A stretch of 64,000 nt of DNA, taken from NCBI GenBank assembly GCA_035492855.1, contig DATJIU010000012.1, positions 3,053 through 67,052 on the forward strand, read 5' to 3'. The position numbers and the translations under genes were made by a program. The notes below the pieces were generated by a model that made no database searches, was not told the DNA's origin, and saw only the letters and a program-made list of their open reading frames with translations. The DNA comes from Dongiaceae bacterium (GTDB taxonomy: Bacteria; Verrucomicrobiota; Verrucomicrobiia; Limisphaerales; JAFMIX01). Shown piece after piece: positions 2,332-49,597 of this stretch (the stretch's first letter is position 1; each line of letters opens with the position of its first letter).

Positions 2332-2343
2332 CCAGCCTTTGGC

Positions 2344-3465: not shown

Positions 3466-3467
3466 CG

Positions 3468-18910: not shown

Positions 18911-21025
18911 TTATTGCTGGGTGCGGAAGAACAGCCGACTGTTGGTCGGACTGACGCTATACGGCGACGTGGCGTCCGGAACCGGATCCCACGGTCCGGA
19001 AAGGTTGGGGGCCTGGAGCAGAGTGCCGCCAGTCCATTCCAACTGGATGTTGCCGCCCACCACGGTCAGGGTAATTGGCGAGGGCGGCTGGTTAACCACC
19101 TGGTTTAGCCCGCTCGCATAGAGCGAATAGACCTGGTTGGAGGACAGGGTTGATGTAAAGATGGCCACCTCGTCGATCTGGCCGTTGAAATTATTGTTGC
19201 CCAGCGCGCCTTCAAGGGGGTAGGTGCCGATGTATTCCGTGGCATCAAAGGCCTGCACCGGGTGGGTGGCGGTGTTGACCGCGGATTGTACGCCTTCGCT
19301 GTTGATGATGTAGAGGGTGGCATCGGTCGGGGAAACCGCCAAGGCCACCAGCGACCACTCGTCGTGCGGGGCGGTGATGCCGGAATTCCAGGACTGGATG
19401 CCAAAGTCATTGCCCCAACTGTAGCCGATGTTGCCATCCAGACCGCTGCTGTTCAGGTAACCGCCATCGTAACGGATGCCGCATACCATGTTGTTGGTCC
19501 CGGCGGTGAACACGATGCCTCCGTTGCCCTGGTTAAATTGCGGATAAATCCAGGCCGTAAAGGTTACCGTATTGGTATTCAGGTTCCACGGCGCCACCGG
19601 AAGCAAATCGTTCGGGTCGAGGAACTGGAACGTCGCCGCGTAATTCGTGCTGACGAATCCGGGAAAGGCGGTGTCGGGCGTGGGTCCGGGCTGGCCCAGA
19701 ACAGCGCTCGTGCCGTAGGTGCCATTTTTTCCACCAATGAAATCCCAGGCGTTGGTGCCGGAGGTTTCGTTCAGGCGATAATAATGCGCCGCACCCAAGG
19801 AACGGACGGTGGCTTCATAGAGCGAGCCGTCGGGATAGGCGATGCCCAGGGGCGCCACACTGCTGGTCACCGAGCCATAGACCGTGCTGGCGATGGCCTT
19901 ATAATTTCCGAGATTGGTGGGATCCACGCTGGAAATGAGGAGGTTGGTGGTCGTCGTCCCGGAAAAGGCTCCGCCGTCGGACAGACCAGCGTTGTTCCAC
20001 AACCAACGGTTGGTAGTCGTCACTCCGCCGATGTCGGTCACCGTGAATTGTGCCGGGTAGCCGGCGTATATGACCTGTTGATCGGGCACCGGGCCGGCCA
20101 GCCCCACGGCAATGACCGTCAACGTTGCCGGCGGACTGCTGGTGACGGCGCCGTTGTCATTCGACACGGAAACCACGTAATCCAGTCGATATGCGGGTGT
20201 GGCGTTGGAAATGACCAGGGAGGAGGTGTTCACCCCGGAGAAATCGCCGGCATTGGCCAGGTTGGTATAAATACCACTGCCCACCGCGCCAGCCATCCAT
20301 TGATAGGTGGGATCGGGATCCCCCATGGCCACCACGCTCATAGTTACAGTGGTACCGGCCGCCACGGTTTGATTGGTTGGAGACCCGTAGATGGCCGGTA
20401 TCGCGATCGGTCCTTCCTGACCGGCCCGGATGTCGGTATTCGCGGTGTCTTCGTAGGCATAATCAATCACCGTCATGGTTGGCAGCGCCAGGGTGTAATT
20501 CAGTTCCAGGTGCACCCAGCCATAATTGGTAGTGGCGGGATCGACGCTGTTATCCACCAGGGCCAGCGCCACGAACCCAAAGGTATCCTGTCCGGCCGGC
20601 CACTGCCCCACCGTGTTATTCTCGCCGTTCTGATAGAGATAGCCTTCGTTCTTGCTATGCTGGTCGGTGTAGCCAACGGCGACAGTGTTGGTATCCACGT
20701 CGAACTGGCTGGTGATGGTGGTACCAAAGGGGATCACCGGAACCCCGTTATTGTCGGTGTTGTCCGGAGTCATCACCAGCTCGTTCAGCACGTACGGGGT
20801 GGGAACGGACGTGACGTCGGTGCCCAAGACGCAGGGCTTGCTGGCATTGTTGTTATCGAAGAATACCTTGAAGTCGGTGGTGCCGTCAGTATTCAAATCG
20901 AAGTTATAACCGGAGTCGCTGGTGGCGACAGTCTGATTCACGGATTGGTACACGATGGCGCCGTGAGCCATGCCGGCCGCGAGCACAGAACTGGACGCGG
21001 CCAGGAGGGTTTTGTTTGCTTTCAT
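18911..21025 (-). CDS. Secreted multidomain protein with a paralog-shared N-domain, two Ig-like domains, a LamG (concanavalin-like) domain and a C-terminal beta-sandwich
   Basis: The start is taken at ATG 21025 (MKANKTLLAASSSVLAAGMAHG). Ig-like blocks include 'QTVAAGTTVTMSVVAMGDPDPTYQW'. The LamG-like block runs from 'FTAWIYPQFN...' through 'WSLVALAV...' to '...FNGQIDEVAIF'. The C-terminal motif is 'LQAPNLSGPWDPV...FFR'. Confidence 0.75.
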   Translation of the reverse strand: MKANKTLLAASSSVLAAGMAHGAIVYQSVNQTVATSDSGYNFDLNTDGTTDFKVFFDNNNASKPCVLGTDVTSVPTPYVLNELVMTPDNTDNNGVPVIPFGTTITSQFDVDTNTVAVGYTDQHSKNEGYLYQNGENNTVGQWPAGQDTFGFVALALVDNSVDPATTNYGWVHLELNYTLALPTMTVIDYAYEDTANTDIRAGQEGPIAIPAIYGSPTNQTVAAGTTVTMSVVAMGDPDPTYQWMAGAVGSGIYTNLANAGDFSGVNTSSLVISNATPAYRLDYVVSVSNDNGAVTSSPPATLTVIAVGLAGPVPDQQVIYAGYPAQFTVTDIGGVTTTNRWLWNNAGLSDGGAFSGTTTTNLLISSVDPTNLGNYKAIASTVYGSVTSSVAPLGIAYPDGSLYEATVRSLGAAHYYRLNETSGTNAWDFIGGKNGTYGTSAVLGQPGPTPDTAFPGFVSTNYAATFQFLDPNDLLPVAPWNLNTNTVTFTAWIYPQFNQGNGGIVFTAGTNNMVCGIRYDGGYLNSSGLDGNIGYSWGNDFGIQSWNSGITAPHDEWSLVALAVSPTDATLYIINSEGVQSAVNTATHPVQAFDATEYIGTYPLEGALGNNNFNGQIDEVAIFTSTLSSNQVYSLYASGLNQVVNQPPSPITLTVVGGNIQLEWTGGTLLQAPNLSGPWDPVPDATSPYSVSPTNSRLFFRTQQ

Positions 21026-21282
21026 ATTAATTTTGCTTCGGGGACAGAACTCGCCGGCATCCCGGGGCGGACAGCTTCTCCGGCCGGCATCTAAAAGGTC
21101 GTTGATTGGCTTCGGCCACCGCACGGCGACGTCTCCGGCTGGTCAAAAGCCCACCGTTGAAATGGACAATGCAAGCGGCGCTGCCGGGGGCCGCACCGCT
21201 TCTTTTTTACCAGGATGCCAAATTGCCCGAAGCCACCGCATTTCGGAGGAGTTGGCGGTCGGCAGGCCATTCGGGTGGTGAA

Positions 21283-22002
21283 TCAACGCATCTTTTTCCG
21301 GGCCAACACCAGCAGGGCGCCACCCAGGCCGGTCAACGCCACCGTGCCCGGCTCCGGAACGGTCAGCGGCGGGGTGACGATGGCCGTGCCCGGCGTGGTT
21401 TCATATCCGGTCTCAATCAGCGTCATCGTTGAATTGATGCCGTTAAACTCCAGCTCCAACCACCCATAATTGGTGGTGCTCAGCGAGGTGTCCACCATGG
21501 CCAGGCCCACATAACCAAAAGTGTCCTGACCCGCCGGCCACTGGCCCACCGTATTGTTTTCGCCATTTTGATACAGATAGCCTTCATTTTTGCCATGCGT
21601 ATCGCCCCCCGCGTCGCCAATGGTGAGGGTATAACTGCCCACGGTGAATTGGCTGGAGATGGCCGTGCCGGCGGGAATTACCGGCACCCCGTTGTTGTCA
21701 TTGCTCGCTGGCGCCACCGCGTTCATGTTCAGTTCGTTGAAAACAAACGGGGTGGGGTTGGGAAATGTCCCGGGATAGGATCCGGAGGTGGTGCTGGCCC
21801 CCAAGATGCAGGGCTTGGCGGCATTATTGTTGTCAAAAAACGCCTTGTAATCGTCAGTGCTGTCCGAATTCAGATCAAAGTTATAGCCGGCGTCGCCGGT
21901 GTTTACGGTGTGGTTTAAGAAGTGGGTGACCACGGCGCCATGAGCCATGCCTGCGGCGAGCACGGAACTCGACGCTGCCAGGAGAGTTTTGTTTGCTTTC
22001 AT
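21283..22002 (-). CDS. PEP-CTERM sorting-domain protein (paralog of the N-domain of the downstream gene)
   Basis: 239 aa. The C-terminal 'VPEPGTVALTGLGGALLVLARKKMR' gives the PEP motif, a TM helix and a basic tail. The first 23 aa are identical to those of the 18911-21025 product. Confidence 0.85.
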   Translation of the reverse strand: MKANKTLLAASSSVLAAGMAHGAVVTHFLNHTVNTGDAGYNFDLNSDSTDDYKAFFDNNNAAKPCILGASTTSGSYPGTFPNPTPFVFNELNMNAVAPASNDNNGVPVIPAGTAISSQFTVGSYTLTIGDAGGDTHGKNEGYLYQNGENNTVGQWPAGQDTFGYVGLAMVDTSLSTTNYGWLELEFNGINSTMTLIETGYETTPGTAIVTPPLTVPEPGTVALTGLGGALLVLARKKMR

Positions 22003-22538
22003 AGTCAGGGTTGCTTTCTGGAACTGCGTTCGCGGGCGTTTAGGGCGGACATCGTCTCCAAGCAGTGGGAGCCCCGGAAAAAATTGGCTTGAACCGCAAG
22101 GCGGTGACGTTCACTACCATTGGCGACAATGTTATTCACGGTTTCTCGCCCCTGAACCAACCTGGCCCGCTTGAGTCACGAGCGGGCCAAACCCTCATTT
22201 CATCCAAATGGTTGAAACGTAATTAAGGGTTGTGTGGAAATGCTAATTCAGGTGACGAGCACAGGTTATCGAACTGCTGGGAAATCAGCGCGGGACTCTC
22301 GTGCCAAAAAGCGGGTGGAAGCGTGCCAGATGTGGCACAGCGCACCCGCTGCCCGCATTGGGTATTGAACATCGGGATATCAGGACAGAATAACCCAACC
22401 AACTATGAACAAGTGGTTTGCCGTAATCATCTGCACCGCCATCACAGCCGCAAGGTCGGGCAGGGTTTCCGTAGATGAGGTCTTTCCTTGAAAGATCGCG
22501 CGAATCGGGAGATTGACCTGCAACCGCCCCGCCTTAAG

Positions 22539-25500
22539 ATGGCCGGTATGCTGCCACAGAGCGGTTGGGGCCGCCTAATTCCCTTTTTCAGCCGGGCTTT
22601 GCTATGTGCCGGCGGGGTCGGGCTGCTCTGGTTCTGCCCTTTCGGCGTGATGGCGGCCTCCGACACCAACGCCCTCCCGGCCAAGATTGTCCGGCAATAC
22701 GCCCTGACTTCCGCCAACGATTTCCCCCAACGCGATCCCATGGACTGGCGCCTGCTCGGATCCAATGATGGCGGGCAATCCTGGCGGGTCCTGGATGAGC
22801 GCAAGGGCATCGTCTTCACCAACCGTCACGAGCGGCAACTTTTCCGGATCTCCAACCACACCGCCTTCAACGTGTATCGCCTGGAAATCCTGCGCATCCG
22901 CAAACCTTCCGAGGCCAATTCCATCCAACTGGCGGAAATCGAGCCGCTCGGCGAGACCGAGGCGGACGTGGACCCCGTTCCCATTTTTGCCGACCGGATT
23001 ACGGCCCAGGGCGACAATCCGAATCTGGAGGAACCCTTCAACGTCTTCGACGGCCAGGCAGACACCAAATGGCTGGATTTTGCCGACCAAAATCCCGACA
23101 CCCGGGCCTCCTGGATTCAGTGGCAGTACACCGACCACACCGGCCTGGTCATCACCAACATCAACCATCTCCTGGAATTGCGCGGCCAGGCGGCCCGGCA
23201 ATATGCGGTGCGGCTCAACGGGTGGATTATCGGCTCCCTGGAGTCGCCCGACCGGTGGTGTTTGTTGAATGCCTCCGGTCATTTTGATTTCCCGATGCCG
23301 CCACCGGCGAATTTTTCCCCGGGCCAACAAGTCCGGGTGGAAGGCCGCACGCGCGCCGTCGGGGGCGACACCGAAATCGCGGAAGTCCAGGTCACCCCGC
23401 TGACACCGCTTGCCCCCCCGGTACCGGCCGGCTTGGGAGAACCATTGTCACCCCAGGAAACCATGCGTCCGGTGCTGGTAAGCGGGACGGTGCGTTTTGT
23501 AGGCCGCTACGAGCAGGGTTTGAGTTTTGAATTAATGGAGAATGGCCGCTTCGTCACGGTGCGCGTGCTGCATGCCGCCCCGACCGGTGCTTTGCCTGCA
23601 CCCGGCATGCGCGTGCAGGTGACCGGGGTGGCCGAGGGGGTTTTCAACAGCCAGGGCCAACGCGTCCTGGGACTGGTATGGGCCGCCACGCCCCAACAAA
23701 TCACTCCTTTGGCTCCGCTGGCAACCCAGCCACCCGCCCCGGCCAACGCCGCCAGCAATGAAGTGCCCGAGGCTCTGACCCTCACCTCCATCCACCAAAT
23801 TCGACAGTTGAGCGCCGACCGGCTGGAACAAAAACCCCGCGTCTCCCTGCGCGGCGTGGTGACCGACCTTTATGGCACCTACATCGAGGATGAGACCGGC
23901 GGCATCGAACTCGGCTTCAAGCCCGAGCAGTCGTACCTGACGCCCGCTCTCGGGGACTACGTGGTGGTCCAGGGCACCGCCGACTGGGTGGATGGCGACA
24001 CCGCCGTGAATGTCGAGAGCGTGCAGTCACTGGGCAAGGGCAGCCTGCCCACCGCCAAACCTTCCTCCTGGAGCGAACTCTCCAGTGGTCACGGTGTGGA
24101 CCAATGGGTGGAAATTGAAGGCGTGGTGCACGCTTCGGATGGCTCCCATGTGCTGCTGGAATGTGAAGGCGAACAGGCCCTGGCCACCATTCGCAGCGCT
24201 CCAGCGCCTTTGGTGGACAACCTGGTGGATGCCGTCGTCCGCATGCGCGGCATCGGCACCACCGCCCGCGACAAACATCAGGTGCGCGGCACCACCCTCA
24301 TCGTGCCCTCGCTGGAATTTGTGGAGGTGGACCAGCCGCCGGAGGATGTGGCCGCCTTGCCCACCCGCAAGATCAGCAGCCTCCTGCATGGCTACGGTTC
24401 CAAGGCGTTGCGCCGCCGCGTCAAAATTGAAGGCATCCTGACGTTGCAGGATGGCGATCATTATTTTCTGCAGGACGGCACTGGCAGCACCATGGCCGTG
24501 GCCAAGCAAAGCATTGTCCTCACCCGTTCCGGCCACTGGGTGTTCTGGCAAAGCACCCAGAGTCCGGACACCGGCGGCGAGGCCACCCTGAAACCGGGCG
24601 ACCGGGTTGAAGTCGTGGGCTTCCCCGAGTTGCGCGGCTATTCTCCGGTGCTGACCGAGGCGTTATTTCACCGGCTCGGCCAAGCCACCCCGGTCCTGCC
24701 CGTGCGGACCGACATGGAGAGCATTTTTTCCGGCAACCTGGATTCCACCCTGGTCAGCCTGGAAGGTGTGCTGTTAAGCAAACAAATGTTCGGCCGCCGG
24801 ACCGTCATGGAATTTCGCGACGGGCAGCGCGTGTTTGAAGCCCTCGCCCAAACCCCGGTCACCGCCGTCGCCCCGGGCAGTCGCGTCCGGGTTACCGGCG
24901 TATGCCAGACCCAGCCCACCCCTTATGAAGAATTCGGCAAAAGTGTCAGCTCGTTCAAACTCCTGGTGGGGGCGGAGTCCGACCTGGTCGTGTTGCAACG
25001 GCCGCCGTGGTGGGATTTCAAACGCACCCTGGCGGTGGCCGGCACCCTGACCGGCATTTTGTTCGTGGCCGTCTGCTGGATTGTGCTGCTGCGGCGCCAG
25101 GTGGAAAAACGCACCCTCCTCCTGCAACGGGAAATTGAGGAGCGCAAACGCATCGAACTCAAAATGGAGCGCACCCATCAACAGCTCCTCACCACCTCCC
25201 GCCTGGCCGGCATGGCCGAGGTAGCCACCTATGTGCTCCACAATGTCGGCAACGTGCTCAACAGCGTCAACCTCTTGGGCGCCGCCATTGCCAACAGCAT
25301 TCATGACTCCCAGGTGGGCGCCGTCCGCAAGCTCGCTGACCTCCTTTCCGCGCAGGGCAATGACTTGGGAAAATTCATGACCGACGACCCGCGCGGGCAA
25401 AGGGTACCCGGCTATTTGAAGCGGCTCGGCACCCATCTCGCCCAGGAACAGTCTGATCTCAACCGCAAGGTGGAGTTTCTGACCGGGAACATCCAGCACA

Positions 25501-26084
25501 TCAAGGAAATCGTGGCCACCCAGCATGCCTACGCCAAGGCCTCGGGCGTTTGGGAAACCGCCCTGCTGGAGGACATCGTGGAAGACGCCCTCCGCATGCA
25601 GGGCGAAATTCTCGCCCACCACAACATCCGGCTGGAGCGGGATTATGTGAAAGCTCCGCCCGTATTGCTGGACCGCCACAAGGTGCTGCAAATCCTGTTC
25701 AACCTGTTGCAAAACGCCAAGCACGCCTGCGACAAGGCCGGCACCGCAGAAAAAAAAATCACCGTGCGCATCCGCCTGCCGGACGGGCAGCACGTCTCCG
25801 TGGCCGTGCAGGACAATGGTGTGGGGATCGCTCCGGAAAATCTGCCGCGCATCTTTGGGCAGGGTTTTTCCACCCGCAAAGACGGCCACGGGCTGGGGCT
25901 GCACAGCAGCGTGTTGATGGCCGAAGACATGGGCGGCACGCTCAAAGCTTTCAGTGCCGGGCCCGGTCAGGGCGCCACCTTCACCCTGGAACTGCCCCTG
26001 GCCCCCAAAACCGAAACGCCCCACCCGGAACCGCGGCCCACTGCAACCGCCGCCCCGGCGCCGCCGGCAAATATCTCCAATTAA
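22539..26084 (+). CDS. Large sensor histidine kinase with a discoidin-like and repeated OB-like ectodomain
   Basis: ATG 22539 is preferred over TTG 22488. It has an N-terminal TM/signal and discoidin-like blocks ('DWRLLGSNDGGQSWRVL', 'FDGQADTKWLDF'). Repeated 'V.[IL].G.V' modules follow, then the TM helix 'LAVAGTLTGILFVAVCWIVLL'. The DHp is 'AGMAEVATYVLHNVGNVLNSV' and the HATPase has 'LLQNAKHA', 'QDNGVGI' and 'GHGLGLH'. Confidence 0.85.
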   Translation: MAGMLPQSGWGRLIPFFSRALLCAGGVGLLWFCPFGVMAASDTNALPAKIVRQYALTSANDFPQRDPMDWRLLGSNDGGQSWRVLDERKGIVFTNRHERQLFRISNHTAFNVYRLEILRIRKPSEANSIQLAEIEPLGETEADVDPVPIFADRITAQGDNPNLEEPFNVFDGQADTKWLDFADQNPDTRASWIQWQYTDHTGLVITNINHLLELRGQAARQYAVRLNGWIIGSLESPDRWCLLNASGHFDFPMPPPANFSPGQQVRVEGRTRAVGGDTEIAEVQVTPLTPLAPPVPAGLGEPLSPQETMRPVLVSGTVRFVGRYEQGLSFELMENGRFVTVRVLHAAPTGALPAPGMRVQVTGVAEGVFNSQGQRVLGLVWAATPQQITPLAPLATQPPAPANAASNEVPEALTLTSIHQIRQLSADRLEQKPRVSLRGVVTDLYGTYIEDETGGIELGFKPEQSYLTPALGDYVVVQGTADWVDGDTAVNVESVQSLGKGSLPTAKPSSWSELSSGHGVDQWVEIEGVVHASDGSHVLLECEGEQALATIRSAPAPLVDNLVDAVVRMRGIGTTARDKHQVRGTTLIVPSLEFVEVDQPPEDVAALPTRKISSLLHGYGSKALRRRVKIEGILTLQDGDHYFLQDGTGSTMAVAKQSIVLTRSGHWVFWQSTQSPDTGGEATLKPGDRVEVVGFPELRGYSPVLTEALFHRLGQATPVLPVRTDMESIFSGNLDSTLVSLEGVLLSKQMFGRRTVMEFRDGQRVFEALAQTPVTAVAPGSRVRVTGVCQTQPTPYEEFGKSVSSFKLLVGAESDLVVLQRPPWWDFKRTLAVAGTLTGILFVAVCWIVLLRRQVEKRTLLLQREIEERKRIELKMERTHQQLLTTSRLAGMAEVATYVLHNVGNVLNSVNLLGAAIANSIHDSQVGAVRKLADLLSAQGNDLGKFMTDDPRGQRVPGYLKRLGTHLAQEQSDLNRKVEFLTGNIQHIKEIVATQHAYAKASGVWETALLEDIVEDALRMQGEILAHHNIRLERDYVKAPPVLLDRHKVLQILFNLLQNAKHACDKAGTAEKKITVRIRLPDGQHVSVAVQDNGVGIAPENLPRIFGQGFSTRKDGHGLGLHSSVLMAEDMGGTLKAFSAGPGQGATFTLELPLAPKTETPHPEPRPTATAAPAPPANISN

Positions 26085-26102
26085 TCGCACCCCAAACGCC
26101 AC

Positions 26103-28235
26103 ATGAAATGGGAAAACACCCAGACGCCGCGCATCCTCGTGGTGGATGACAACCGCCGCATTCACGAGGATTTCGATCTGGTTTTCGCCACGCGCCAGCG
26201 CAACCTGGAGTTGGAAGCCGACCATGCCGAGTTCTACGGCGAGTCCGCGCCGCCGGTGGTGGCAAATCCCACGTATGAAGTGGACCACGCCTTTTCCGGC
26301 ATCGAGGGGATTGCGAAAACGCAAAGCTCCCTGGCCGCCGGCACCCCCTATCAGGTGGCCTTTGTGGATATCCGCATGCCCGGCATGGACGGGGTGGAAA
26401 CCATTGGCCGCCTCTGGGCCATTGACCCGCGCATTCAGGTGGTCATCTGCACGGCCTTCGCCGATTACCGGTGGGAAGACCTCGCCGGCCGGCTCGGCCA
26501 GAGTGACAAATTGCTGGTCCTAAAAAAACCTTTTGACCATATCGAAGCCTTTCAACTCGCCTGCACGCTGAGCGAAAAATGGTTTCTCACCCGGCATGCG
26601 GCCCTCAAATTCGAGCAGATGGAATTGCTGGTGGCCCAGCGCACCCAACGTCTGCTGGACCTCCAACGCCGCGAAGCCCGGCAGCCTGATGAGCTGGATC
26701 AAATCAAACTCCGGCTGCTCACCCGCCTGACCGAAAGCCTGCGCCCGCCCCTCACTCACATCCATGACTGGCTGGAGCATTCGCGCGGCCGAAAACCGGA
26801 AGCCCCCGGGGGGATGGAGGTGCGTCAAAGTGCCGCGCAGTTGCTGCATCTGGTGGAAGAAGGTTTGAACCTGGGCCACCTCGCGAAAGAGGATGTGCAA
26901 CTTCAGGCGGCCGCCGCCGATATGGTGCCGTTTCTGCAAGGGATTGTGGACCGGCTCCAACCAGAGGCCAATCGGCGGCAGGTTCGCCTGGAATTCCAGA
27001 GCAATCAAACTCATTGGCCCGCCACCTTCGACCCGCGGCTGCTGGAAAAAGTTTTGGTCAATCTGGGGTCGGGTGCTTTGGCCCTGACCCCGGAAAATGG
27101 CCGCGTCTCTGTGCAGGCCGAGTTCAATCCCGACGGCCTACAACTGGTGATTCAAGACACCGGAGCAGGCGTTTCCCCGGAGGGCCAACCCCGGGGGGCC
27201 GCGGTCTCGGGCCAGCCTCCCTATTTTCCCGGCCTGAGCCTGGCATTTATCCAGGAATTGCTGCGGCTCCAAGGTGGCACCCTCGCTTGGCAAAGTCCCG
27301 GGTCCGACTCTGCCACCGCAACCCAATCTCCCGGCACGCGCTTCATCCTCCAGTTACCGCTGCCGGAACGCGACGCTAGCGGGGGCGAATCCCCGGCCCC
27401 GGTGGAAGCGCCCACGGCTCCGATCGGTGCCACCCCCGCACCGCCATTGGATGAGGAATCCGGATTGAAGGAGCAGCCGCTGATTTTGCTGGTCATGGAC
27501 CGGGCCGATGCGGCGGCGCAAATCCAGCAGGGGTTTGGCGCGGACTATCGCACCCTCCTGGTCAAGGACGGCACGCAAGGGCTCATTCAAGCCCGCGAAA
27601 TGCTGCCCGACGTCATTATTGCCGAGGTGGCGCTTTCCGTGCTGGACGGCATTGAACTCTGCCGGAAGCTCAAAAATGACGAACTGACGGGCCACATTCC
27701 GGTCATCTTGATTGCCGACCACGGCCGGGAAACGGGCCAACTACAGGCGCTGGAAGCCGGAGCGGATGATTACCTGCTCCAACCCTTGAACTTTTCGCTG
27801 CTCCGGGCGCGGGTGGACAATCTCCATGAATCCCGCCAGAAACTGGCCGGGCGACTGCGGCAGGTGCAGCAGTTATATCCGCGTGACCTGGCCACGAATC
27901 AAAGCGACGCCAAATTTATCCGCCGCGTAATTGACCTGGTGGAGGAAAACCTGGCGGATTGCGATTTTGATCTGGAAATCATGGCCCGCAAGCTGGCGGT
28001 GAGCCGCCGGCAATTGTTCCGCAAGCTGGGCGCCGCCGCCGGGTGCAGCCCGAACACGTTCATCCGCACCCTGCGCCTGCGGCGCGCCGCGCAGTTGCTG
28101 ATGGAATCCCAGATGACGGTGACCGAAATCACCTACGCCGTGGGGTTTTCAGACCTAAAATATTTTCGCACCATTTTTCGCGAGTATTACGGGGTGAGTC
28201 CGGGGGAATATCTCAAGCGTTCCAAAACGCCCTGA
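26103..28235 (+). CDS. Response regulator with an intact REC, a degenerate HisKA/HATPase core, a degenerate REC and an AraC-type HTH
   Basis: 710 aa. REC1 is canonical (VVDDN, FVDIRMPGMDG, CTAF, KKPF). The DHp reads 'LTESLRPPLT' (His replaced by Glu). The N-box is 'NLGSGALA' and G2 is 'FPGLSL'. REC2 reads 'LVMDRAD', 'IIAEVAL', 'LIAD' and 'LLQPLN'. The C-terminal AraC HTH is 'YAVGFSDLKYFRTIFREYYGVSPGEY'. It lies 18 nt after the kinase gene. Confidence 0.85.
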   Translation: MKWENTQTPRILVVDDNRRIHEDFDLVFATRQRNLELEADHAEFYGESAPPVVANPTYEVDHAFSGIEGIAKTQSSLAAGTPYQVAFVDIRMPGMDGVETIGRLWAIDPRIQVVICTAFADYRWEDLAGRLGQSDKLLVLKKPFDHIEAFQLACTLSEKWFLTRHAALKFEQMELLVAQRTQRLLDLQRREARQPDELDQIKLRLLTRLTESLRPPLTHIHDWLEHSRGRKPEAPGGMEVRQSAAQLLHLVEEGLNLGHLAKEDVQLQAAAADMVPFLQGIVDRLQPEANRRQVRLEFQSNQTHWPATFDPRLLEKVLVNLGSGALALTPENGRVSVQAEFNPDGLQLVIQDTGAGVSPEGQPRGAAVSGQPPYFPGLSLAFIQELLRLQGGTLAWQSPGSDSATATQSPGTRFILQLPLPERDASGGESPAPVEAPTAPIGATPAPPLDEESGLKEQPLILLVMDRADAAAQIQQGFGADYRTLLVKDGTQGLIQAREMLPDVIIAEVALSVLDGIELCRKLKNDELTGHIPVILIADHGRETGQLQALEAGADDYLLQPLNFSLLRARVDNLHESRQKLAGRLRQVQQLYPRDLATNQSDAKFIRRVIDLVEENLADCDFDLEIMARKLAVSRRQLFRKLGAAAGCSPNTFIRTLRLRRAAQLLMESQMTVTEITYAVGFSDLKYFRTIFREYYGVSPGEYLKRSKTP

Positions 28236-28415
28236 GCGGGCGGAGCCCGCGGGCCGGAGATTTTTGTCACTTTACCCCCGCTATTTTGGCACATTGCTCC
28301 CACGACAATCCGCGATTCCGAACCGAGGATGCGGCGCAATCACACTTATGAAAACGACGCTCACCATTTGTCCTCCGGAGTGCCGGGGCGATTCCAAGGC
28401 AACCTCATTGATGTT

Positions 28416-30899
28416 ATGACCCTGAGTCTGAAATGCAGTTTGATATTGGGAATTGTCGTTTTGGCCGGCACCGCGGTGGCGGCGGACCCGGCACCGGAAG
28501 TGCAAAAGATTTTTCTGCCGGAACGGCTCTACGCGGGGAATACCGGCATCAAGCAGGTGCAGCCCATTGATGAGGCTGTGTGGATCTGGCACCCGGATTT
28601 CAGCCCGGAAGCCAGGGGAGCGCTGCATTCCGAGGTGTTTGCCGGGGGGTGGCGCGAACCGGTGTTGCTGCGCTTCCGCCGCGAGTTTGCCGCCACCGCC
28701 ACGCCCCTCCGCATCCATGTCAGCGCGGATGAACGGTTTGAATTGTTGCTGGATGGCCAGCGGATTGCGCGGGGGCCGGACCGCTCCGACGTGGAGCACT
28801 GGTGCTATGCCACCTATGATTTGCGGCTCGCTCCGGGATCGCATCGCTTGGAAGCGCTGGTGTGGAGCATCGGCCCCAACGCCCCGGTCGCGCAACTGAC
28901 CTGGCGCGGCGGTTTCATTCTCAAGGCCGAGGGCGATTATGACCGCGAACTGACCACCGGCAAGGCGCCCTGGGAAGTGGCGAAGCTGGAGGGCTACGAG
29001 TTCACCGCCGGTGATTTTTTTGGGGGCGTGGGCGCCCAGTTGACCGCGCATGACTGCGGGCCGCAATGGAAAGAAGACAACTACGTCCCCGCGCACGTGG
29101 TGCGGAGGGCATTGCAAAGCAGCGAGTTTGGTGATGCCACCTCGGGCTGGAAGCTGTATCCCACCACGTTGCCCGATCAACTGGACCGCGAATTGACGCC
29201 CGGCCGCGCGGTGGCCCTGGGCAGCGGCGTGCTGGGCAAGGACGATGTCGTGAACGCGGCGGCGGCGCAAAGCCCGAACCTGCCCCGCTGGCAGGCGTTG
29301 CTGGAAGGGCGCGAGGAAGTGGTGATTCCCGCCCACACCGAGGAATTTATTCTCTGGGACCTCGGCAACTATTACTGCGCCTATCCGGAATGCGAAGTGA
29401 GCGGCGGTGCCGGCGCGAAGCTGGCCTGGAGCTGGGCGGAATCACTGTACCTGCCGAAATCCGACGCCAAGGGCCAGCGCGATGAATTCATCGGCAAAAC
29501 CTTTCACGGCACCACCGACACCTTCCTGCCCGGTGGCGGGGCGCATCGGAAATTCAGCACGCTCTGGTGGCGCGCCGGCCGCTGGTGTCTGCTTTCCATC
29601 AGGACGGACGCGGCGCCGTTGACCCTGCACCGGGTGGCGCTCGACGAGAGCCGTTATCCCTACGAACTGGAAAGCCGCTTTGACGACGGCGATCCGCAAC
29701 TGCCGGGCGTGATCGCGCTGGCAACGCGCGGCATCCAGATGTGCGCGCACGAAACTTACATGGATTGCCCCTACTACGAGCAGTTGATGTATGACGGCGA
29801 TGCCCGTTTGGAATTGCTCACCACCTACACCATGACGCGCGATGACCGGTTGGCCCGCCGTGCCATCGAGTTGCTGGATTTCTCCCGTCAAAATTCTGGG
29901 TTCGTCAAGGAACGCTACCCGTCCTACCTGGCGCAGCATTCGCCAACGTTTTCGCTGATTTGGGCGCTGATGCTGCACGACTATGCCTGCTGGCACAACG
30001 ACCCGGACTTCGTGCGCGCCCGGGCAATCGGCCTGCGGTCCATGTTGGCGCAATTTGAATCCTACGAAAACGCGGACGGGCTGTTGGAAAATCTGCCCGG
30101 CTGGCCTTTCATGGACTGGGTGGACGGCTGGGACTGCGGCAACGCGCCGGATGGCGTGAAGGGCGTTTCTGCGCTGAACAACCTGCTCTACGTGTATGCC
30201 CTGCAAGGCTCCGCCGAAGTGGAGGATTATTTGGGCGAACCCCTGCTGGCGCAACGCCTGCGGGCCAAAGCCGCCCGCACCGCCGCCGCCGTACGCGCGA
30301 GGTTCTGGGACGAATCGCGCGGGCTCATGGCCGACAACCTGGCTCACACCGAGTTCAGCGAACACGCGCAATGCCTGGCGTTGCTCACCGATACCCTCAC
30401 GGGAGAGCGGGCGCAACGCTGCTTCGCCCAGTTGTTATCCGCGCCGGACCTCAAGCGCACGACCATTTACTTCAGCTTTTATTTGTTGGAGACCTGGCAG
30501 AAATTCGGTCGCGGCGATCTCATTATGCAGCGGCTGGATTTTTGGAAGGATTTGGTCCGGCAGGGGCTCAAGACCCCGGTGGAGCAACCCGGCGATACGC
30601 GCTCGGATTGTCATGCCTGGGGCAGCCATCCGTTGTTTCATCTGCATGCAAGCCTCGCGGGAATTCGTCCGGCGTCCCCGGGTTTCCGCACGGTCCGCAT
30701 TGCGCCGGAGCCGGGCGACCTGCCTAAAATTGTGAGCCGCACGCCGCATCCAGATGGCTTCATCGCGCTGAACCTGAACTTTGCAAATGGCTCTTGCCAG
30801 GGTACGGTGGAACTGCCGCCGGGTATTCCGGGCACCTTTGTCTGGCACGGTCAGGAACAAAAGCTGACTGGCGGCACCAATTCAATTGATCTGAAATAG
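28416..30899 (+). CDS. GH78-related (alpha/alpha)6 six-hairpin glycosidase (alpha-L-rhamnosidase-like), secreted
   Basis: The start is taken at ATG 28416 (MTLSLKCSLILGIVVLAGTAVAADP). 'ETYMDCPYYEQLMYDGDARL' parallels the GH78 'DCP.RE..GWTGD' catalytic-domain motif, and 'DCHAWGSHP' lies near the C-terminus. The family assignment is tentative. Confidence 0.6.
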   Translation: MTLSLKCSLILGIVVLAGTAVAADPAPEVQKIFLPERLYAGNTGIKQVQPIDEAVWIWHPDFSPEARGALHSEVFAGGWREPVLLRFRREFAATATPLRIHVSADERFELLLDGQRIARGPDRSDVEHWCYATYDLRLAPGSHRLEALVWSIGPNAPVAQLTWRGGFILKAEGDYDRELTTGKAPWEVAKLEGYEFTAGDFFGGVGAQLTAHDCGPQWKEDNYVPAHVVRRALQSSEFGDATSGWKLYPTTLPDQLDRELTPGRAVALGSGVLGKDDVVNAAAAQSPNLPRWQALLEGREEVVIPAHTEEFILWDLGNYYCAYPECEVSGGAGAKLAWSWAESLYLPKSDAKGQRDEFIGKTFHGTTDTFLPGGGAHRKFSTLWWRAGRWCLLSIRTDAAPLTLHRVALDESRYPYELESRFDDGDPQLPGVIALATRGIQMCAHETYMDCPYYEQLMYDGDARLELLTTYTMTRDDRLARRAIELLDFSRQNSGFVKERYPSYLAQHSPTFSLIWALMLHDYACWHNDPDFVRARAIGLRSMLAQFESYENADGLLENLPGWPFMDWVDGWDCGNAPDGVKGVSALNNLLYVYALQGSAEVEDYLGEPLLAQRLRAKAARTAAAVRARFWDESRGLMADNLAHTEFSEHAQCLALLTDTLTGERAQRCFAQLLSAPDLKRTTIYFSFYLLETWQKFGRGDLIMQRLDFWKDLVRQGLKTPVEQPGDTRSDCHAWGSHPLFHLHASLAGIRPASPGFRTVRIAPEPGDLPKIVSRTPHPDGFIALNLNFANGSCQGTVELPPGIPGTFVWHGQEQKLTGGTNSIDLK

Positions 30900-33835: not shown

Positions 33836-34798
33836 ATGAACCGGGTGGATCGTCTCATGGCCATGGCGTTGCGGCTGCAAAGCCGCCGCGTGGTGCGTGC
33901 GGAGGATTTCGCCGCGCATTTTGAAATCAGCGTGCGCACGGTGTACCGTGACCTCGGCGCGCTGAGCGAGGCGGGCATTCCCATCGTGGCCGAGGCCGGC
34001 ATCGGCTACAGCCTCGTTAAGGGTTACCATCTGCCGCCGGTGATGTTCACCGCCGACGAGGCCAGCGCGCTCTTCCTGGGTGAAAAGCTGGTGGAACAGT
34101 TCACCGATGCCTCGTTGCGCAAGCAGATGGCGTCGGCGTTGCTGAAAATCCGCTCGGTGCTGCCGCGCGACCGGCAGGATGACCTGGACCGGTTGGAACG
34201 TGCCACGGCGGTATTGCCGCATGCGGTGGCAAACCGGCCGCGGCTGGCGAGCGAGATGCTCAGCCCGTTGCAACGCGCCGTGGCCGGCCGGCAGGTGCTG
34301 GTGCTGGAATATCGCGGCGGCCGGCGCCAGGAGGTCACGCACCGGCTGGTGGAACCGCTGGGGCTGGTTTATTACGCGGAGAACTGGCATCTCATCGCCT
34401 GGTGCCGGCTGCGCCAGGATGTGCGCGATTTTCGCACGGACCGCATCCTCCGGCTGGAACTGCGCGAGGAACGCTTCGCGGGCCACGCCGATTTTTCGCT
34501 CCGGGATTATCTCGCCGCCGAAATGTCCTCCGGCCAGTTCGAGCTGGCGCAAATCAGCTTTGCCCCGGAAGTCATGGACCGCGTGCGGCGCGAGCATTAC
34601 TGGGGGTTGGTGGAGGAAAAACCCGGCGCCGGCTTCGTGGAGGTGACGGTGCTGGAGCATTCGCTCGATTTTCTGACGCATTGGGTGCTGTCGTTCGGCC
34701 CGCAGGCCCGGGTGCTGGGGCCGGAGCGGTTTTGCCAAAAAGTGGCGGCGGCGGCGGCCCAAATTGCGGCGCAATACGCCGCCCCGCAGCCGGAATAA
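33836..34798 (+). CDS. YafY-family transcriptional regulator (HTH + WYL domain)
   Basis: 320 aa. 'RLMAMALRLQSRRVVRAEDFAAHFEISVRTVYRDLGALSEAGIPI' is the HTH_11-type domain. 'WHLIAWCRLRQDVRDFRTDRI' is the WYL-domain core. Confidence 0.9.
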   Translation: MNRVDRLMAMALRLQSRRVVRAEDFAAHFEISVRTVYRDLGALSEAGIPIVAEAGIGYSLVKGYHLPPVMFTADEASALFLGEKLVEQFTDASLRKQMASALLKIRSVLPRDRQDDLDRLERATAVLPHAVANRPRLASEMLSPLQRAVAGRQVLVLEYRGGRRQEVTHRLVEPLGLVYYAENWHLIAWCRLRQDVRDFRTDRILRLELREERFAGHADFSLRDYLAAEMSSGQFELAQISFAPEVMDRVRREHYWGLVEEKPGAGFVEVTVLEHSLDFLTHWVLSFGPQARVLGPERFCQKVAAAAAQIAAQYAAPQPE

Positions 34799-35035: not shown

Positions 35036-36580
35036 TCATTTCCACTGAATGCGCACTTCATAGAGGTCAGCTCCGCCCACTTCATCATTAAAAAAGAGCG
35101 CAAGGGTGTTACTGTTCGCGGGTGTTGGAAGTTCGCTGATGGCAGCGACTCCCCTGCCGCTCAGCTTGGTCAACGTAACTTGACTGGGAGATTTTGGCCC
35201 GAAGAGGGACGTCAAAGCTTCAAACGGAATGCTGTTGGTCCCGTCCCACTGCGGCCGCCAGGCCATGCCATTGATGAAGGTGGGGTGGTTGCCCCCCTTT
35301 GGGTCTCCCGGGAAGCCGGCCTCTTCGTGTTCCCACCAGACTTTTTTACCCTGAATCTTGAGGGTATCCCTCCCATCAATGTACGCCTTGATGGTAATGG
35401 TGTTCTTGGTTCCGGCGGGGCTGAGGAAGGCAATGGCCAGTGCGCCTGCCACCAGCAGCACCCCAGCGCTGAGAAGCGCCATTTTTATTTTTGTTGATGT
35501 CATATTTTTCGGTTTTCCTTTGCGATGGGTTATTATTGCAACGTCCGCCGCCGGTAACCCCGAGAGCGGATTCCCGGGCGGGCGAACGATGGTTTCCACC
35601 ATCGTTTTGACTTCACTGACTTGCTGAAAACGCAGCTCGGGATCCCCTTCTAACGCGCGTAACACGACCTCATCCAGCCGCACGTCAATTTGCACTTTCT
35701 TCGAAGGTGGTTCGAGCCGCCCGTTGGGCCGCTCCCCCGTGAGCAGTTCGTAGAGCACCACGCCCAGGGAATAAACGTCGGCGCGACTGTCCACGCGCTG
35801 TGGATCGGTCTTCTGCTCTGGTGCGCTGTAACCAGGCGTGCCAACGGCGGCCTGCGTGGCACCTTCCGGCACGGCGGGTTCACCTGCCGTGCCGCTGGCC
35901 AGCATCGCGCCGAACATTTTGGCAATGCCGAAGTCCGCCACTTTCACCCGGCCATCCTTGTCGAGCAGCAGGTTTTCCGGCTTGATGTCGCGGTGCACAA
36001 TGCCCCGATCGTGGGCATATTGCAGCGCGTCGCACAGCGGCGGCACGATGGCCAGCGCCTCTGCTGGCGTGAACTTTCGCGTCTGTAACAGCTGGCGCAG
36101 ATTGACGCCATCCACGAATTCCATGAGCAGGTAATAATACCCGCCCGCCGGGCCAAAATCATGAATGGTGACGATGTTCGGATGGTTCAACGCGGCGAGC
36201 GCCTGCGCCTCGCGCACAAAACGGTCGGCAAATTTCGCATCACCCCCGCGCTCCGGCGCCAGCAATTTTAACGCAACGAAACGGTTCAGGGACTTTTGCC
36301 GGGCCTTGTAAACCACTCCCATGCCGCCCCGGCCGAGACACTCCAGAATTTCAAGCTGGGGAAAATGCGGCGCAATCTGTTCTGGTGGCAGCGGTGGCTG
36401 CGCAGCCGGCTCCGCAGCCCCCTGCGTGGCTGCCATTGCCTCGGCCAGCAGACACCGCGGGCACAGGCCGGCCGTGGCGTCCGAAGGCAACGCCGCCCCG
36501 CACTTGGGACAGGCGGTCGCGGCCGAAGTTGACTCGCTCATATCGGGGTCCTGACGTGCCGGCGTAGTTTGGTTACCCAC
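35036..36580 (-). CDS. Ser/Thr protein kinase with an N-terminal zinc-ribbon-like motif, a single TM helix and an extracytoplasmic C-domain
   Basis: 514 aa. 'CPKCGAALPSDATAGLCPRCLL', kinase motifs 'GRGGMGVVYKA', 'HRDIKPENLL', 'DFGIA' and 'GTPGYSAPE', and the TM helix 'MALLSAGVLLVAGALAIAFL'. The start is GTG 36580 or ATG 36541. Confidence 0.9.
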   Translation of the reverse strand: MGNQTTPARQDPDMSESTSAATACPKCGAALPSDATAGLCPRCLLAEAMAATQGAAEPAAQPPLPPEQIAPHFPQLEILECLGRGGMGVVYKARQKSLNRFVALKLLAPERGGDAKFADRFVREAQALAALNHPNIVTIHDFGPAGGYYYLLMEFVDGVNLRQLLQTRKFTPAEALAIVPPLCDALQYAHDRGIVHRDIKPENLLLDKDGRVKVADFGIAKMFGAMLASGTAGEPAVPEGATQAAVGTPGYSAPEQKTDPQRVDSRADVYSLGVVLYELLTGERPNGRLEPPSKKVQIDVRLDEVVLRALEGDPELRFQQVSEVKTMVETIVRPPGNPLSGLPAADVAIITHRKGKPKNMTSTKIKMALLSAGVLLVAGALAIAFLSPAGTKNTITIKAYIDGRDTLKIQGKKVWWEHEEAGFPGDPKGGNHPTFINGMAWRPQWDGTNSIPFEALTSLFGPKSPSQVTLTKLSGRGVAAISELPTPANSNTLALFFNDEVGGADLYEVRIQWK

Positions 36581-38399: not shown

Positions 38400-39332
38400 A
38401 TGAAAATCTTGGTAACCACCCCCACGGGCAACGTTGGCCGGCACGTTGTTCGCGAATTGTTGGCGCCGGAATTCACGGTGCGCGTCATCGCGCGCGACCC
38501 GGCGCGATTGCCGGAGGAAGTGCGGGCGCAGGCGGAAGTGGTTTGCGGTTCCACGGATGATGCGGCCCTGCTGGAAACCGCCCTGGACGGCATGGACGCG
38601 TTGTTCTGGTGCACGCCGCCACCGGTGCCGCAGGAAACGGAGGTGCGCGGTCATTATGAACGGTTTGCCCGGGCGGCGGCGGCAGCGGTACGGCAGGCCG
38701 GGACTCCGCGCGTCGTAACCGTTTCGTCCGGTGGCCGGGGACTGGCGCGCAATGCCGGGCCGATATCCGCCTTGCATGCCATGGAAGACATTTTTGACGC
38801 CTCCGGCGCGGCGGTGCGGCATTTGCGCTGCGGCGCGTTCATGGAGAATTTTCTCCGGCAGGTGCCGGGCATTGCCCGGCGCGGCGTCATCACCCAGCCC
38901 ATGCCCGGCCACATCGCCATTCCGATGGTGGCGGCCGCGGACGTGGCGGATGTGGCATTGCGCTGGCTGGTGCGCCGCGAATGGACCGGCCGTGCGGGCG
39001 TGGCGGTGCATGGCCCGGAGGATCTCTCGTACAACCACGCGGCGGCGCTGCTGGAACAGGTGCTGGGCCAGCCGGTGCGTTACGAGGAAATATCGGCCAA
39101 CGCCTACGCGCAGCTCCTGGTGAATGCGGGCGTGAGCGCGGCCCAGGTGCAGGGGCTGGTGGCCATGTTCGCGGAACTCGCCAATGGGATTGCGCGCGTG
39201 GAACCGCGCACCAGCGACACCACCACCGCCACCTCATTCACCGCCTGGGCCACGCGCGAATTGCTGCCGCGGGTGCAGGGCGCCGCCCCGGGCGGCCGGG
39301 AAACCAACGGCCACGCGCTCTGCAAAGTTTGA
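38400..39332 (+). CDS. NmrA-like NAD(P)H-binding protein
   Basis: 310 aa. 'MKILVTTPTGNVGRHVVRELL' Rossmann loop and the length and composition of the NmrA/atypical-SDR family. Confidence 0.85.
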   Translation: MKILVTTPTGNVGRHVVRELLAPEFTVRVIARDPARLPEEVRAQAEVVCGSTDDAALLETALDGMDALFWCTPPPVPQETEVRGHYERFARAAAAAVRQAGTPRVVTVSSGGRGLARNAGPISALHAMEDIFDASGAAVRHLRCGAFMENFLRQVPGIARRGVITQPMPGHIAIPMVAAADVADVALRWLVRREWTGRAGVAVHGPEDLSYNHAAALLEQVLGQPVRYEEISANAYAQLLVNAGVSAAQVQGLVAMFAELANGIARVEPRTSDTTTATSFTAWATRELLPRVQGAAPGGRETNGHALCKV

Positions 39333-39448
39333 GCGGTCGCGGAACTTTTAAGTTCACGGACCTCCGCTCAAGCTCCGCGGTCTTGCTCCGGGCTGGGGAG
39401 CTTTTATACTCACCGCACGGAGCAAACACCCAGCGAGACAGTCATTCC

Positions 39449-40744: not shown

Positions 40745-40865
40745 AAGCCCCGCTCCGGCGGGGAACCGCCGGTGGATTTGCCCGGGCATATCACCTGAAT
40801 TGGGGATTGTTCCCGGGCCGGAAGGCCGTTGCCTGATTTTCCCCGGCCCGTTAGCCTTGCGGAGT

Positions 40866-43735: not shown

Positions 43736-43993
43736 GGAATTTTCGATTTGTACAACAGTGGGATTACGGAGAATTCCGGCGGAGGTCTGTACTATAACCC
43801 TCACCGAAAGCCTTTGGGCTCTCAAAGAACAATACTATCAATGCAGCCCTAAAATCTATCTCCCAAAACTGCTCTCAAATTCTGCCATAATATAAGCATG
43901 CGTGCTGAAGCTTGTCAAATTCTGTTTGTTTAAAATCAGCTAATCTGCTTGCAATAATCACATTTCCAAATTGTTACACCAAGCCCACCCGGT

Positions 43994-44009
43994 TGGCACT
44001 GGCATTGCA
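43994..44009 (+). promoter_or_regulatory. Sigma-54 (-24/-12) promoter upstream of glnB
   Basis: TGGCAC-TGGCA-TTGCA matches the TGGCAC-N5-TTGCW consensus with correct spacing. It lies 76 nt upstream of the glnB ATG on the same strand. Confidence 0.6.
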
Positions 44010-49515: not shown

Positions 49516-49597
49516 CACATTATTAGGTCGAATACTACGCGAACGACTCGACCACTCAAGCACAAATGTCCGAAAGCTGGAAAAAGCGGCCCGAGGC

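Follow-up and report, generated by a model that had tools for sequence, protein, structure and literature searches.

Pseudo-receivers, pseudo-kinases, receiver-controlled (Rec-controlled) histidine kinases and hybrid two-component systems (HTCS) are each already known, and all four bear on a soluble regulator encoded at 26103-28235 of a 64,000-nucleotide stretch (the window) of contig DATJIU010000012.1, which belongs to an assembly labelled Dongiaceae. Classical HTCS proteins combine Reg_prop and Y_Y_Y sensor domains with HisKA, HATPase_c, receiver (REC) and AraC-type helix-turn-helix (HTH_18) domains in one chain. In LvrB of Leptospira (PDB 8vc9), the prototype Rec-controlled histidine kinase, an upstream kinase phosphorylates the protein, and Rec~P drives coiled-coil formation by an alphaS signalling helix that leads into the DHp (dimerisation and histidine phosphotransfer) and CA (catalytic and ATP-binding) domains of an active kinase, whose substrate is a separate partner, LvrC (PMC13269768). 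PleD of Caulobacter has a REC / pseudo-REC adaptor / GGDEF layout, in which phosphorylation drives rearrangement and dimerisation and the phosphorylated receiver acts on the output via the adjacent pseudo-receiver (PMC12632262). Pseudo-receivers are defined as domains that are recognised as PF00072 but lack key catalytic residues, and their switching between on and off states is recognised as an unsolved problem (PMC12632262). DivL, RetS and ShkA are free-standing proteins that have a kinase fold without kinase chemistry within two-component pathways and that have demonstrated new roles. Pseudo-histidine kinases have been treated as a class only recently. In the Spo0F-Spo0B-Spo0A pathway, a REC protein, a four-helix bundle that bears the His and has a dead CA domain, and a REC protein with a DNA-binding domain act as separate chains; Spo0B is a DHp-like His-phosphotransferase whose CA-like domain does not bind ATP.

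The regulator starts 18 nt past the stop codon (26084) of a giant sensor kinase gene, and its product is 100% identical to GenBank HTI97403.1, where the sole annotation is 'response regulator'. The explanation that accounts best for the observations, and one that we consider probable as a whole, is that its ancestor was a hybrid kinase-regulator of the HTCS type, Rec-controlled and laid out as REC / alphaS helix / DHp / CA / REC / AraC, that the internal His-to-Asp relay of this ancestor has been inactivated, and that the protein is now driven by its first receiver (REC1), in which Asp89 is the only working phospho-site. Pfam scans of the regulator return Response_reg in two stretches (89 bits), the better of which is the second receiver (REC2, aa 461-571), a weak HATPase_c match (34 bits, aa 310-421), HTH_18 (82 bits, aa 627-706) and HTH_AraC (40 bits). 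There is no HisKA match at E<=1 and no Reg_prop or Y_Y_Y match in the same scan; the chain begins with a receiver, and no transmembrane (TM) segment is found (maximum 19-residue hydropathy 1.48). In REC1, D89, T117 and K142 align with the phospho-Asp, Thr and Lys of the Spo0F, NtrC and CheY receivers, D15/D16 form the acidic pair, and the best solved match is Spo0F. At the other end of the protein, the AraC domain is the best-conserved segment, with 88-92% identity to orthologues.

Between REC1 and the AraC domain, the residues needed for phosphorelay have been replaced. When six classical HTCS proteins are aligned with it by MAFFT, the HTCS H-box S-H-E-F-R-T-P-L-T falls opposite T-E211-S-L-R-P-P-L-T in the regulator, and the N-box NLLSNAFK falls opposite NLGSG324ALA, with Asn replaced by Gly324. 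The F-box is deleted and the G2 motif GxGxG has become F-P-G-L-S; G1 (DTGAG, aa 352-356) survives. HATPase_c scores 34 bits in the regulator, whereas 16 of 17 proteins scanned for comparison reach about 90-111 bits, and the seventeenth, P0124 (49 bits), belongs to the regulator's own family. In REC2, the acidic pair ED is replaced by M465-D466, the phospho-Asp by E508 (GAG, 27624-27626), the Ser/Thr by A538 and the Lys by Q560. These assignments agree between the MAFFT alignment and a phmmer alignment to 12aw_A (E 1.4e-38), the closest solved relative of the C-terminal half and a REC-AraC fragment that goes by the name "hybrid two-component system protein". With neither the His nor the second Asp left, a relay of the Spo0F-Spo0B-Spo0A kind would not be possible. 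Judged by its sequence, REC2 fits the definition of a pseudo-receiver, being recognised as PF00072 with the D/T/K residues gone (PMC12632262). The DHp-CA block likewise fits that of a pseudo-histidine kinase, with the fold kept, the His and ATP motifs lost and activity presumably lost with them.

A preliminary description, made from the letters and translations only, had anticipated much of this. Its domain order (REC1 / DHp / HATPase / REC2 / AraC-HTH), its canonical REC1 (D-D-D-T-K), its His to Glu change (GAA at 26733-26735), its N-box Gly and FPGLSL at G2, and its MD, Glu, Ala and Gln in REC2 all stand, and a direct check shows the codons that it names to be correct. So does its broader contrast between erased catalytic residues and an intact REC1, and profile and multiple alignments agree that its manual alignment was not shifted; the sole addition is the survival of G1.

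The relationship to HTCS proteins emerges from a search with aa 165-710 against 1.84 billion representative proteins. The first ten or so clusters are the regulator's own family; next come many proteins of 1300-1450 aa that align over their last ~550 residues in a single continuous stretch (33-37% identity, E 1e-75 to 1e-123) and that Pfam identifies as classical HTCS (Reg_prop, Y_Y_Y, HisKA, HATPase_c, REC, HTH_18). Outside its own family, therefore, the DHp-CA-REC2-AraC block of the regulator is closest to classical HTCS proteins, as the preliminary description had proposed for its cytoplasmic origin. The regulator shares with them the DHp / CA / REC / AraC order, the continuous homology over four domains, the AraC helix-turn-helix (HTH) and a setting among glycoside hydrolase (GH) genes. 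It differs in having no periplasmic sensor or TM segment, in the loss of the phospho-His, of the ATP-binding boxes and of the receiver Asp/Thr/Lys, in its extra intact N-terminal receiver and signalling helix, and in its input, which apparently comes from a classical kinase that is encoded separately and belongs to a different lineage.

This last difference bears on the idea, put forward in the preliminary description, of a 'split HTCS' whose sensor half is the upstream kinase. The core of that kinase matches HTCS cores weakly and in the CA domain only (39-68 bits), versus 76-124 bits over DHp and CA for the dead core of the regulator; its H-box is of another type than that of HTCS proteins, and its sensor has no Reg_prop/Y_Y_Y propeller. 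The kinase thus appears to be of a different lineage and the split was rejected, while the description of the regulator as a rewired HTCS derivative is supported. The HTCS-type module also occurs behind soluble inputs, including GAF domains (P0220, P0264, P0122). Two further proteins, P0168 (680 aa) and P0121 (955 aa), are fronted by a receiver and have the order REC-HisKA-HATPase-REC-AraC with every catalytic motif intact; the architecture of the regulator therefore exists in working form. Because such intact proteins exist, the front receiver is probably older than the decay of the core, in a LvrB-like layout, rather than a receiver added in front of a fossil as originally suggested.

The regulator is one member of a large, uncharacterised family. 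The best 120 database clusters were aligned, and all are relatives with REC1 at the front and REC2-AraC at the end; those with an organism named by their source are mostly Verrucomicrobiota/Verrucomicrobiae metagenome-assembled genomes (MAGs), annotated only as "response regulator" or "CheY-like". The five active-site residues of REC1 are invariant in all 117 clusters that include the N-terminus. Almost no variation is seen in the alphaS helix (aa 146-193), and this holds down to the shortest and most divergent members; most of the invariant columns fall in REC1 and this helix. The H-box His position is occupied by E, Q, K, D, R, N, Y and rarely H, and the REC2 'D' position by E, D, G, N, A, T and K; G1 and the N-box are not conserved, and none of the family members examined retains all of the ATP-binding motifs. 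One group, typified by P0043, keeps the His, the N-box Asn and the REC2 Asp beside dead G1, F and G2 motifs. In this subgroup (P0043, P0044, P0046, P0060, P0076 and P0077; P0043-type locus L008 8001-10100), the H-box His and REC2 Asp are kept, in most members along with the Lys and the N-box Asn, and G1, F and G2 are gone wherever a CA domain is present. By sequence, such proteins could carry out an ATP-independent Asp-His-Asp relay in a single chain, as an analogue of Spo0F-Spo0B-Spo0A.

Among close relatives (70-80% identical in the parts they have in common), three architectures are found: full length, a form with CA removed (~540-570 aa), and a form with both DHp and CA removed (~460-490 aa). 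The excision boundaries vary from case to case, and when the shared domains are placed on a neighbour-joining tree, full-length and excised forms interleave within the regulator's own clade, which argues for several independent in-frame excisions. Codon comparisons with the three loci L001-L003 point in the same direction. The rate of nonsynonymous change (dN) in DHp/CA is ~3-fold that in REC1/REC2, and REC1 has the lowest dN of all segments bar the AraC domain; its ratio to the synonymous rate (dN/dS) is 0.2-0.4 in DHp/CA, 0.05-0.17 in REC1/REC2 and 0.02-0.13 in AraC. Constraint on DHp/CA thus appears, from these sequences, to be relaxed and not absent. The 'scaffold' of the preliminary description fares accordingly: the core is dispensable in orthologues, and some purifying selection on it persists.

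Dispensability can also be judged from orthologous loci. In L002-L004, the gene order of the window is repeated: PEP-CTERM proteins on the minus strand, the giant kinase (72-74% identity by tblastn), the regulator, and a GH78-like enzyme (73-80% identity). L001 has the same kinase-regulator pair, and its contig ends upstream of the pair. At the orthologous syntenic locus in L004, the regulator has no CA domain; the pseudo-CA is therefore dispensable in what is the same genomic job.

An AlphaFold2 model of the regulator (monomer, built on a 96-sequence family alignment; mean predicted local distance difference score (pLDDT) 82.6, predicted template-modelling score (pTM) 0.48) has REC1 at aa 10-145, followed by a single unbroken helix (aa 146-229) that runs into DHp alpha1, then DHp alpha2 and a well-folded CA domain (pLDDT >90 except for a disordered ATP-lid, aa 360-373). 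A disordered linker (aa 425-455), REC2 and finally the AraC domain complete the model. Foldseek comparison with the PDB gives LvrB as the top match, with ShkA also among the best and the pseudokinases DivL and RetS among the others; the DHp-CA portion superposes on ZraS, CpxA and HK853 at a TM-score of ~0.6. The regulator and LvrB have in common the order REC / alphaS helix / DHp / CA, with a helix that continues REC alpha5, and phosphorylation by an upstream kinase, predicted in the case of the regulator. However, LvrB is an active kinase with a separate partner, whereas in the regulator the kinase is dead and a pseudo-receiver and AraC domain are fused behind it; of the features of a Rec-controlled kinase, the regulator has the intact REC joined to the DHp by a continuous alphaS helix, and it lacks the His and, G1 apart, the ATP-binding boxes needed for autokinase activity.

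The likeness to PleD is of a different kind. Both have a phosphorylatable REC, then a pseudo-receiver, then an output domain, and REC2 matches both PleD receivers; the shortest family forms (REC1 / helix / REC2 / AraC) have essentially the PleD layout. The output here is DNA binding and not a cyclase, however, and in the regulator a dead kinase core of ~280 residues and a linker lie between the two receivers. Like DivL, RetS and ShkA, the regulator contains a kinase fold without kinase chemistry in a two-component setting, but its pseudo-kinase lies inside a transcription factor and is apparently dispensable. The modules of Spo0F, Spo0B and Spo0A are all represented, and P0043-type members even keep the His and Asp, although here the modules form a single chain and the His and second Asp of the regulator itself are gone.

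The two TM segments of the upstream kinase, at about aa 20-40 and 830-852, enclose a ~790-aa periplasmic region, with a canonical core beyond (hydropathy). HATPase_c scores 79 bits, and the H-box YVLH901NVGN (25230-25250), N-box, G1, F and G2 motifs are intact and are conserved in the kinases of more distant cassettes. A kinase of ~1200 aa lies directly upstream of the regulator in all seven loci that have upstream flanking sequence (L001-L004, L008, L010, L011), and the pairing with the upstream sensor kinase proposed in the preliminary description is therefore conserved. In the distant cassettes, kinases of 1198-1251 aa precede the regulator by 10-25 nt or overlap it by 4 nt, and have highly conserved canonical cores (H-box AGMAEVATxVLHNVGN plus N, G1, F and G2 boxes). 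Their neighbouring regulators range from P0043 (His and Asp kept) to P0051 (fully degenerate) and P0093 (no kinase core). Phosphotransfer from the kinase to Asp89 of REC1 would be expected from the 18-nt adjacency and from the pairing in these seven loci. The sensor begins with a domain resembling a carbohydrate-binding module (CBM) and matching one that occurs twice in 7nsn, a multidomain GH92 alpha-1,2-mannosidase, and this similarity is compatible with glycan sensing. A discoidin-like signature, FDGxxxTKW, is found at 23040-23072, and the remaining ~600 periplasmic residues give only faint hints of DUF5666/DUF5818.

When the intergenic DNA of the window was aligned with that of L002-L004, a single conserved block was found on either side of the kinase-regulator operon, the rest having diverged. 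Both blocks are the same motif in opposite orientations, pointing outward, and each consists of two ~22-bp direct-repeat units of the form TGGCAC-N5-YCCCRCG. The motif occurs at equivalent positions in L002-L004. Among the distant cassettes, it is found in L011 upstream of a divergent GH2 gene and in L008 on both sides, with 23-bp spacing. A direct repeat of two bipartite half-sites, two helical turns apart, is the expected target of a dimer of double-HTH AraC-type proteins (AraC, RhaS, XylS); AraC/XylS factors that recognise tandem repeats do so as dimers, on half-sites about 21 bp apart that lie upstream of target promoters. We regard the tandem repeat as the family's candidate operator. Exact matches to the core pattern number two in the window versus 0.02 expected, a figure that is circular, as the pattern was drawn from these very sites.

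Metagenomes offer a broader comparison. Scanning them with a core pattern of 17 bases gave 119 loci, 49 of which also have the 3' box that the pattern left unspecified. A family kinase or regulator gene is present in 19 of these 49 full-motif loci, versus one of the other 70, which lack it (Fisher p = 5e-8); among loci of at least 5 kb, the figures are 11/24 and 1/30 (p = 2e-4). Some contigs have several copies: L091 has three within 2.7 kb (1202-3905), L054 has a divergent pair (3785-4172), and head-to-tail arrays of the 22-bp unit occur in other contigs among L023, L069 and L075. These suggest multi-site promoters or a related repeat element. Within the window, a third match with one mismatch (TGTTAC-N16-TGGCAC; 43972-43999, +) was not counted, being ~870 nt from the next plus-strand open reading frame (ORF); this near-copy sits in a long intergenic stretch past the GH78 gene at 40800-43574. 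A scan of 21900-28500 for consensus promoters and terminators found nothing above shuffled background, and no claim is therefore made for a GC hairpin directly 3' of the regulator stop codon.

The genes that the two candidate operators face are the probable targets (Table 1). Downstream of the regulator, the GH78-like gene is syntenic in L002-L004. Its ORF is listed from 28329, but homologues align only from about residue 22-25, and the ATG at 28416 (M30 of the listed ORF), from which a signal peptide, MTLSLKCSLILGIVVLAGTAVAA, would be read, is the likelier start. On the other side, the secreted paralogues at 18911-21124 (-) and 21283-22002 (-) have in common a ~210-aa N-terminal domain (60% identity). 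One has a terminal PEP-CTERM anchor, the other has Ig-like and LamG domains, and the pair is kept beside the cassette in L002-L004. The preliminary description had the regulator controlling the surrounding glycoside hydrolases; this is supported for the two flanking transcription units, by the candidate operator, and not for the rest of the surrounding genes.

Table 1. Positions in the window of the regulator, its domains, the partner kinase, the candidate operators and the probable target genes.
Feature	Position	Strand	Evidence or remarks
Probable targets: two paralogous secreted proteins	18911..22002	-	Pfam, paralogy, synteny in L002-L004
Candidate operator 1	22285..22328 (core 22301-22328)	-	TGGCAC-N16-TGGCAC-N5-TCCCGCG; faces PEP-CTERM gene 21283-22002
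Partner sensor histidine kinase	22539..26084	+	1181 aa from ATG 22539; alternative TTG start 22488
CBM-like domain at start of kinase periplasmic sensor (aa ~47-140)	22677..22955	+	phmmer E 3e-26 to PDB 7nsn domain
Regulator ORF	26103..28235	+	710 aa; REC1 / alphaS helix / pseudo-DHp / pseudo-CA / linker / pseudo-receiver / AraC HTH
REC1, intact receiver (aa 8-145)	26124..26537	+	D15, D16, D89, T117, K142
alphaS signalling helix (aa 146-199)	26538..26699	+	Unbroken from REC1 alpha5 into DHp alpha1
Pseudo-DHp (aa 200-257)	26700..26873	+	His -> Glu211 (GAA, 26733-26735); no Pfam HisKA match
Pseudo-CA (aa 270-420)	26910..27362	+	Bergerat fold kept; N-box Asn -> Gly324; F-box deleted; G2 degenerate; G1 retained
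Pro/Ala-rich disordered linker (aa 425-455)	27375..27467	+	pLDDT <50; highest dN/dS among segments
REC2, pseudo-receiver (aa 459-575)	27477..27827	+	M465-D466, E508, A538, Q560
AraC/XylS-type double-HTH DNA-binding domain (aa 600-707)	27900..28223	+	HTH_18 82 bits, HTH_AraC 40 bits
Candidate operator 2	28265..28308 (core 28265-28292)	+	TGTCAC-N16-TGGCAC-N5-TCCCACGACA; 123 nt upstream of ATG 28416
Probable target: secreted (alpha/alpha)6 glycosidase, GH78-rhamnosidase-related	28416..30899	+	Bac_rhamnosid6H 59 bits, Bac_rhamnosid_C 25 bits

A signalling path can be proposed because the LvrB and PleD precedents combine with the pattern of conservation. The membrane kinase would sense a periplasmic glycan through its CBM-like domains, autophosphorylate on His901 and pass the phosphoryl group to Asp89 of REC1. 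Phospho-REC1 may then alter the pairing of the long helix that extends from REC1 alpha5 (aa 146-229), as in LvrB. In a dimer held by this helix and the pseudo-DHp bundle, the two pseudo-receiver-AraC modules would be repositioned so as to bind the tandem direct repeats flanking the operon, and the outward-facing genes for the GH78-like glycosidase and the PEP-CTERM surface proteins would be switched on. The pseudo-DHp/pseudo-CA core would perform no chemistry; at most it may be a passive spacer or dimerisation scaffold, one that evolution is discarding and that can apparently be lost without consequence. We infer here which protein phosphorylates which, how the helix acts, that the regulator binds DNA and in which direction it regulates its targets.

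Several observations weigh against this account. The dN/dS of the pseudo-core, at 0.2-0.4, is well below 1, and G1 (DTGAG) is kept; the core therefore would still do something in the lineages that retain it. These ratios are themselves rough and semi-quantitative, as dS is near saturation (~1) in most comparisons. The neighbour-joining tree on which the excisions were placed has no support values, and the AlphaFold2 monomer, with its pTM of 0.48, makes the inter-domain geometry unreliable. The operator pattern was derived from the window's own sites, and among the 49 full-motif metagenome loci there are 30 in which the DNA examined includes no family gene. The TGGCAC core also resembles the -24 box of sigma-54 promoters, and the motif could be a promoter element for another factor. 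The sigma-54 reading was itself rejected, since no instance of the motif has a -12 TTGC at the 5-nt spacing that such promoters need; moreover, regulators of the AraC type are not known to activate sigma-54. Finally, phosphotransfer, dimerisation and DNA binding are each steps that we infer.

The continued selection on the core would also fit an alternative in which the pseudo-kinase/pseudo-receiver block is a second input, through ligand or nucleotide binding or through docking of another two-component protein, so that the regulator integrates two signals. Besides its dN/dS of 0.2-0.4, the block retains G1 (DTGAG) and the Bergerat fold. There are precedents in two of the structural matches: the pseudo-receiver of ShkA binds c-di-GMP, and DivL senses DivK~P; RetS is a further match of the same class. 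Pseudo-receivers, moreover, often act via ligand binding or dimerisation (PMC12632262). However, the block has been deleted repeatedly in close relatives and at an orthologous syntenic locus, G1 and the N-box vary across the family, and no conserved pocket residues were identified in the block, which makes a second input unlikely. Less likely still is the proposal of the preliminary description that Glu508 is a phosphomimic, which would lock REC2-AraC in the active state and leave REC1 mainly as a removable inhibitor or phosphate sink. Glu does occupy the 'D' position in most members of the regulator's own clade, and it is the commonest pseudo-receiver replacement and partly activates real receivers (PMC12632262), but A538 and Q560 have replaced the Thr and Lys with which a mimic would interact, and the position toggles between E, D, G, N, A and K in close relatives. 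For some pseudo-receivers the idea has been disproved (PMC12632262), and it is doubtful here.

It is very improbable that some internal relay persists, whether via H219, H221 or H226 on DHp alpha1 or by Asp-His-Asp transfer, and ends on REC2. Three His residues do lie just downstream of the H-box of the regulator, and P0043-type members keep the canonical His and REC2 Asp beside a dead CA domain, in a Spo0B-like layout. Those nearby His residues are not conserved in relatives, however, and in the regulator the REC2 site has no Asp, the Thr and Lys are gone as well, and the N-box Asn, F-box and G2 are missing. The numerous degenerate motifs might finally suggest a decaying pseudogene or an assembly artefact without function, but this hardly deserves credence given an intact 710-codon frame, dN/dS well below 1 in every domain, homologues of the same layout in all of the best 120 clusters, and conserved synteny.

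The family may also preserve the route by which a REC1-driven regulator with an inactivated relay arose, although we hold this further reading with less assurance than the mechanism and stop a little short of calling it probable. A four-step relay (kinase to REC1 to His to REC2 to DNA) would have collapsed to a one-step system, with all stages extant. P0168 and P0121 would represent the intact form and P0043 a form with His and Asp but a dead ATPase; in the regulator described here both residues would have been erased, in L004 the CA domain excised, and in P0034 and P0093 both DHp and CA excised, giving a PleD-like protein. The signal would have been re-routed from phosphotransfer chemistry to helix-mediated allostery along the same polypeptide path.

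Elsewhere in the window, GH38, GH2 beta-mannosidase-like and GH92 enzymes, a SASA esterase and two GH78-type enzymes are encoded. A second, unrelated two-component cluster, with further kinase and receiver matches, occupies 48200-56000 (-) and 62250-63704 (-); among its genes is one for a 928-aa hybrid kinase (53213-55999), which is 26% identical to the regulator in a match over aa 246-591 of the latter. A WYL regulator (HTH_11-WYL-WCX, 33836-34798, +) adjoins a Ser/Thr protein kinase (35036-36580, -), and a sigma factor of the extracytoplasmic function (ECF) type with DUF6596 lies at 38981-40744. The MAG that encodes HTI97403.1 is labelled Dongiaceae (Alphaproteobacteria), and three of its four syntenic relatives (67-80% identity) are labelled Verrucomicrobiota/Verrucomicrobiia; the fourth, L003, has a Bifidobacteriaceae label that looks equally misplaced, and PEP-CTERM proteins are present in the window. 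The Dongiaceae-labelled contig is probably mis-binned or mislabelled.

A limited library of literature yielded no account of a regulator in which a live receiver precedes a complete but dead HTCS relay; nor did this Verrucomicrobiota family, the kinase paired with it or the candidate operator turn up there. The family amounts to a natural experiment, in which the same regulator occurs in syntenic loci with its dead core present, half removed or fully removed, while distant relatives keep the relay partly or fully. Such a decay series makes it testable whether an internal phosphorelay can be replaced by pure allostery on the same chain, and what a retained pseudo-enzyme contributes. The cassette itself, a CBM-bearing kinase with its regulator and operator motif, looks like a major, as yet unnamed control unit for glycan degradation in soil and peat Verrucomicrobiota, and it aids the reading of polysaccharide-utilisation clusters in a phylum to which the SusC/D-HTCS paradigm of the Bacteroidota does not extend.

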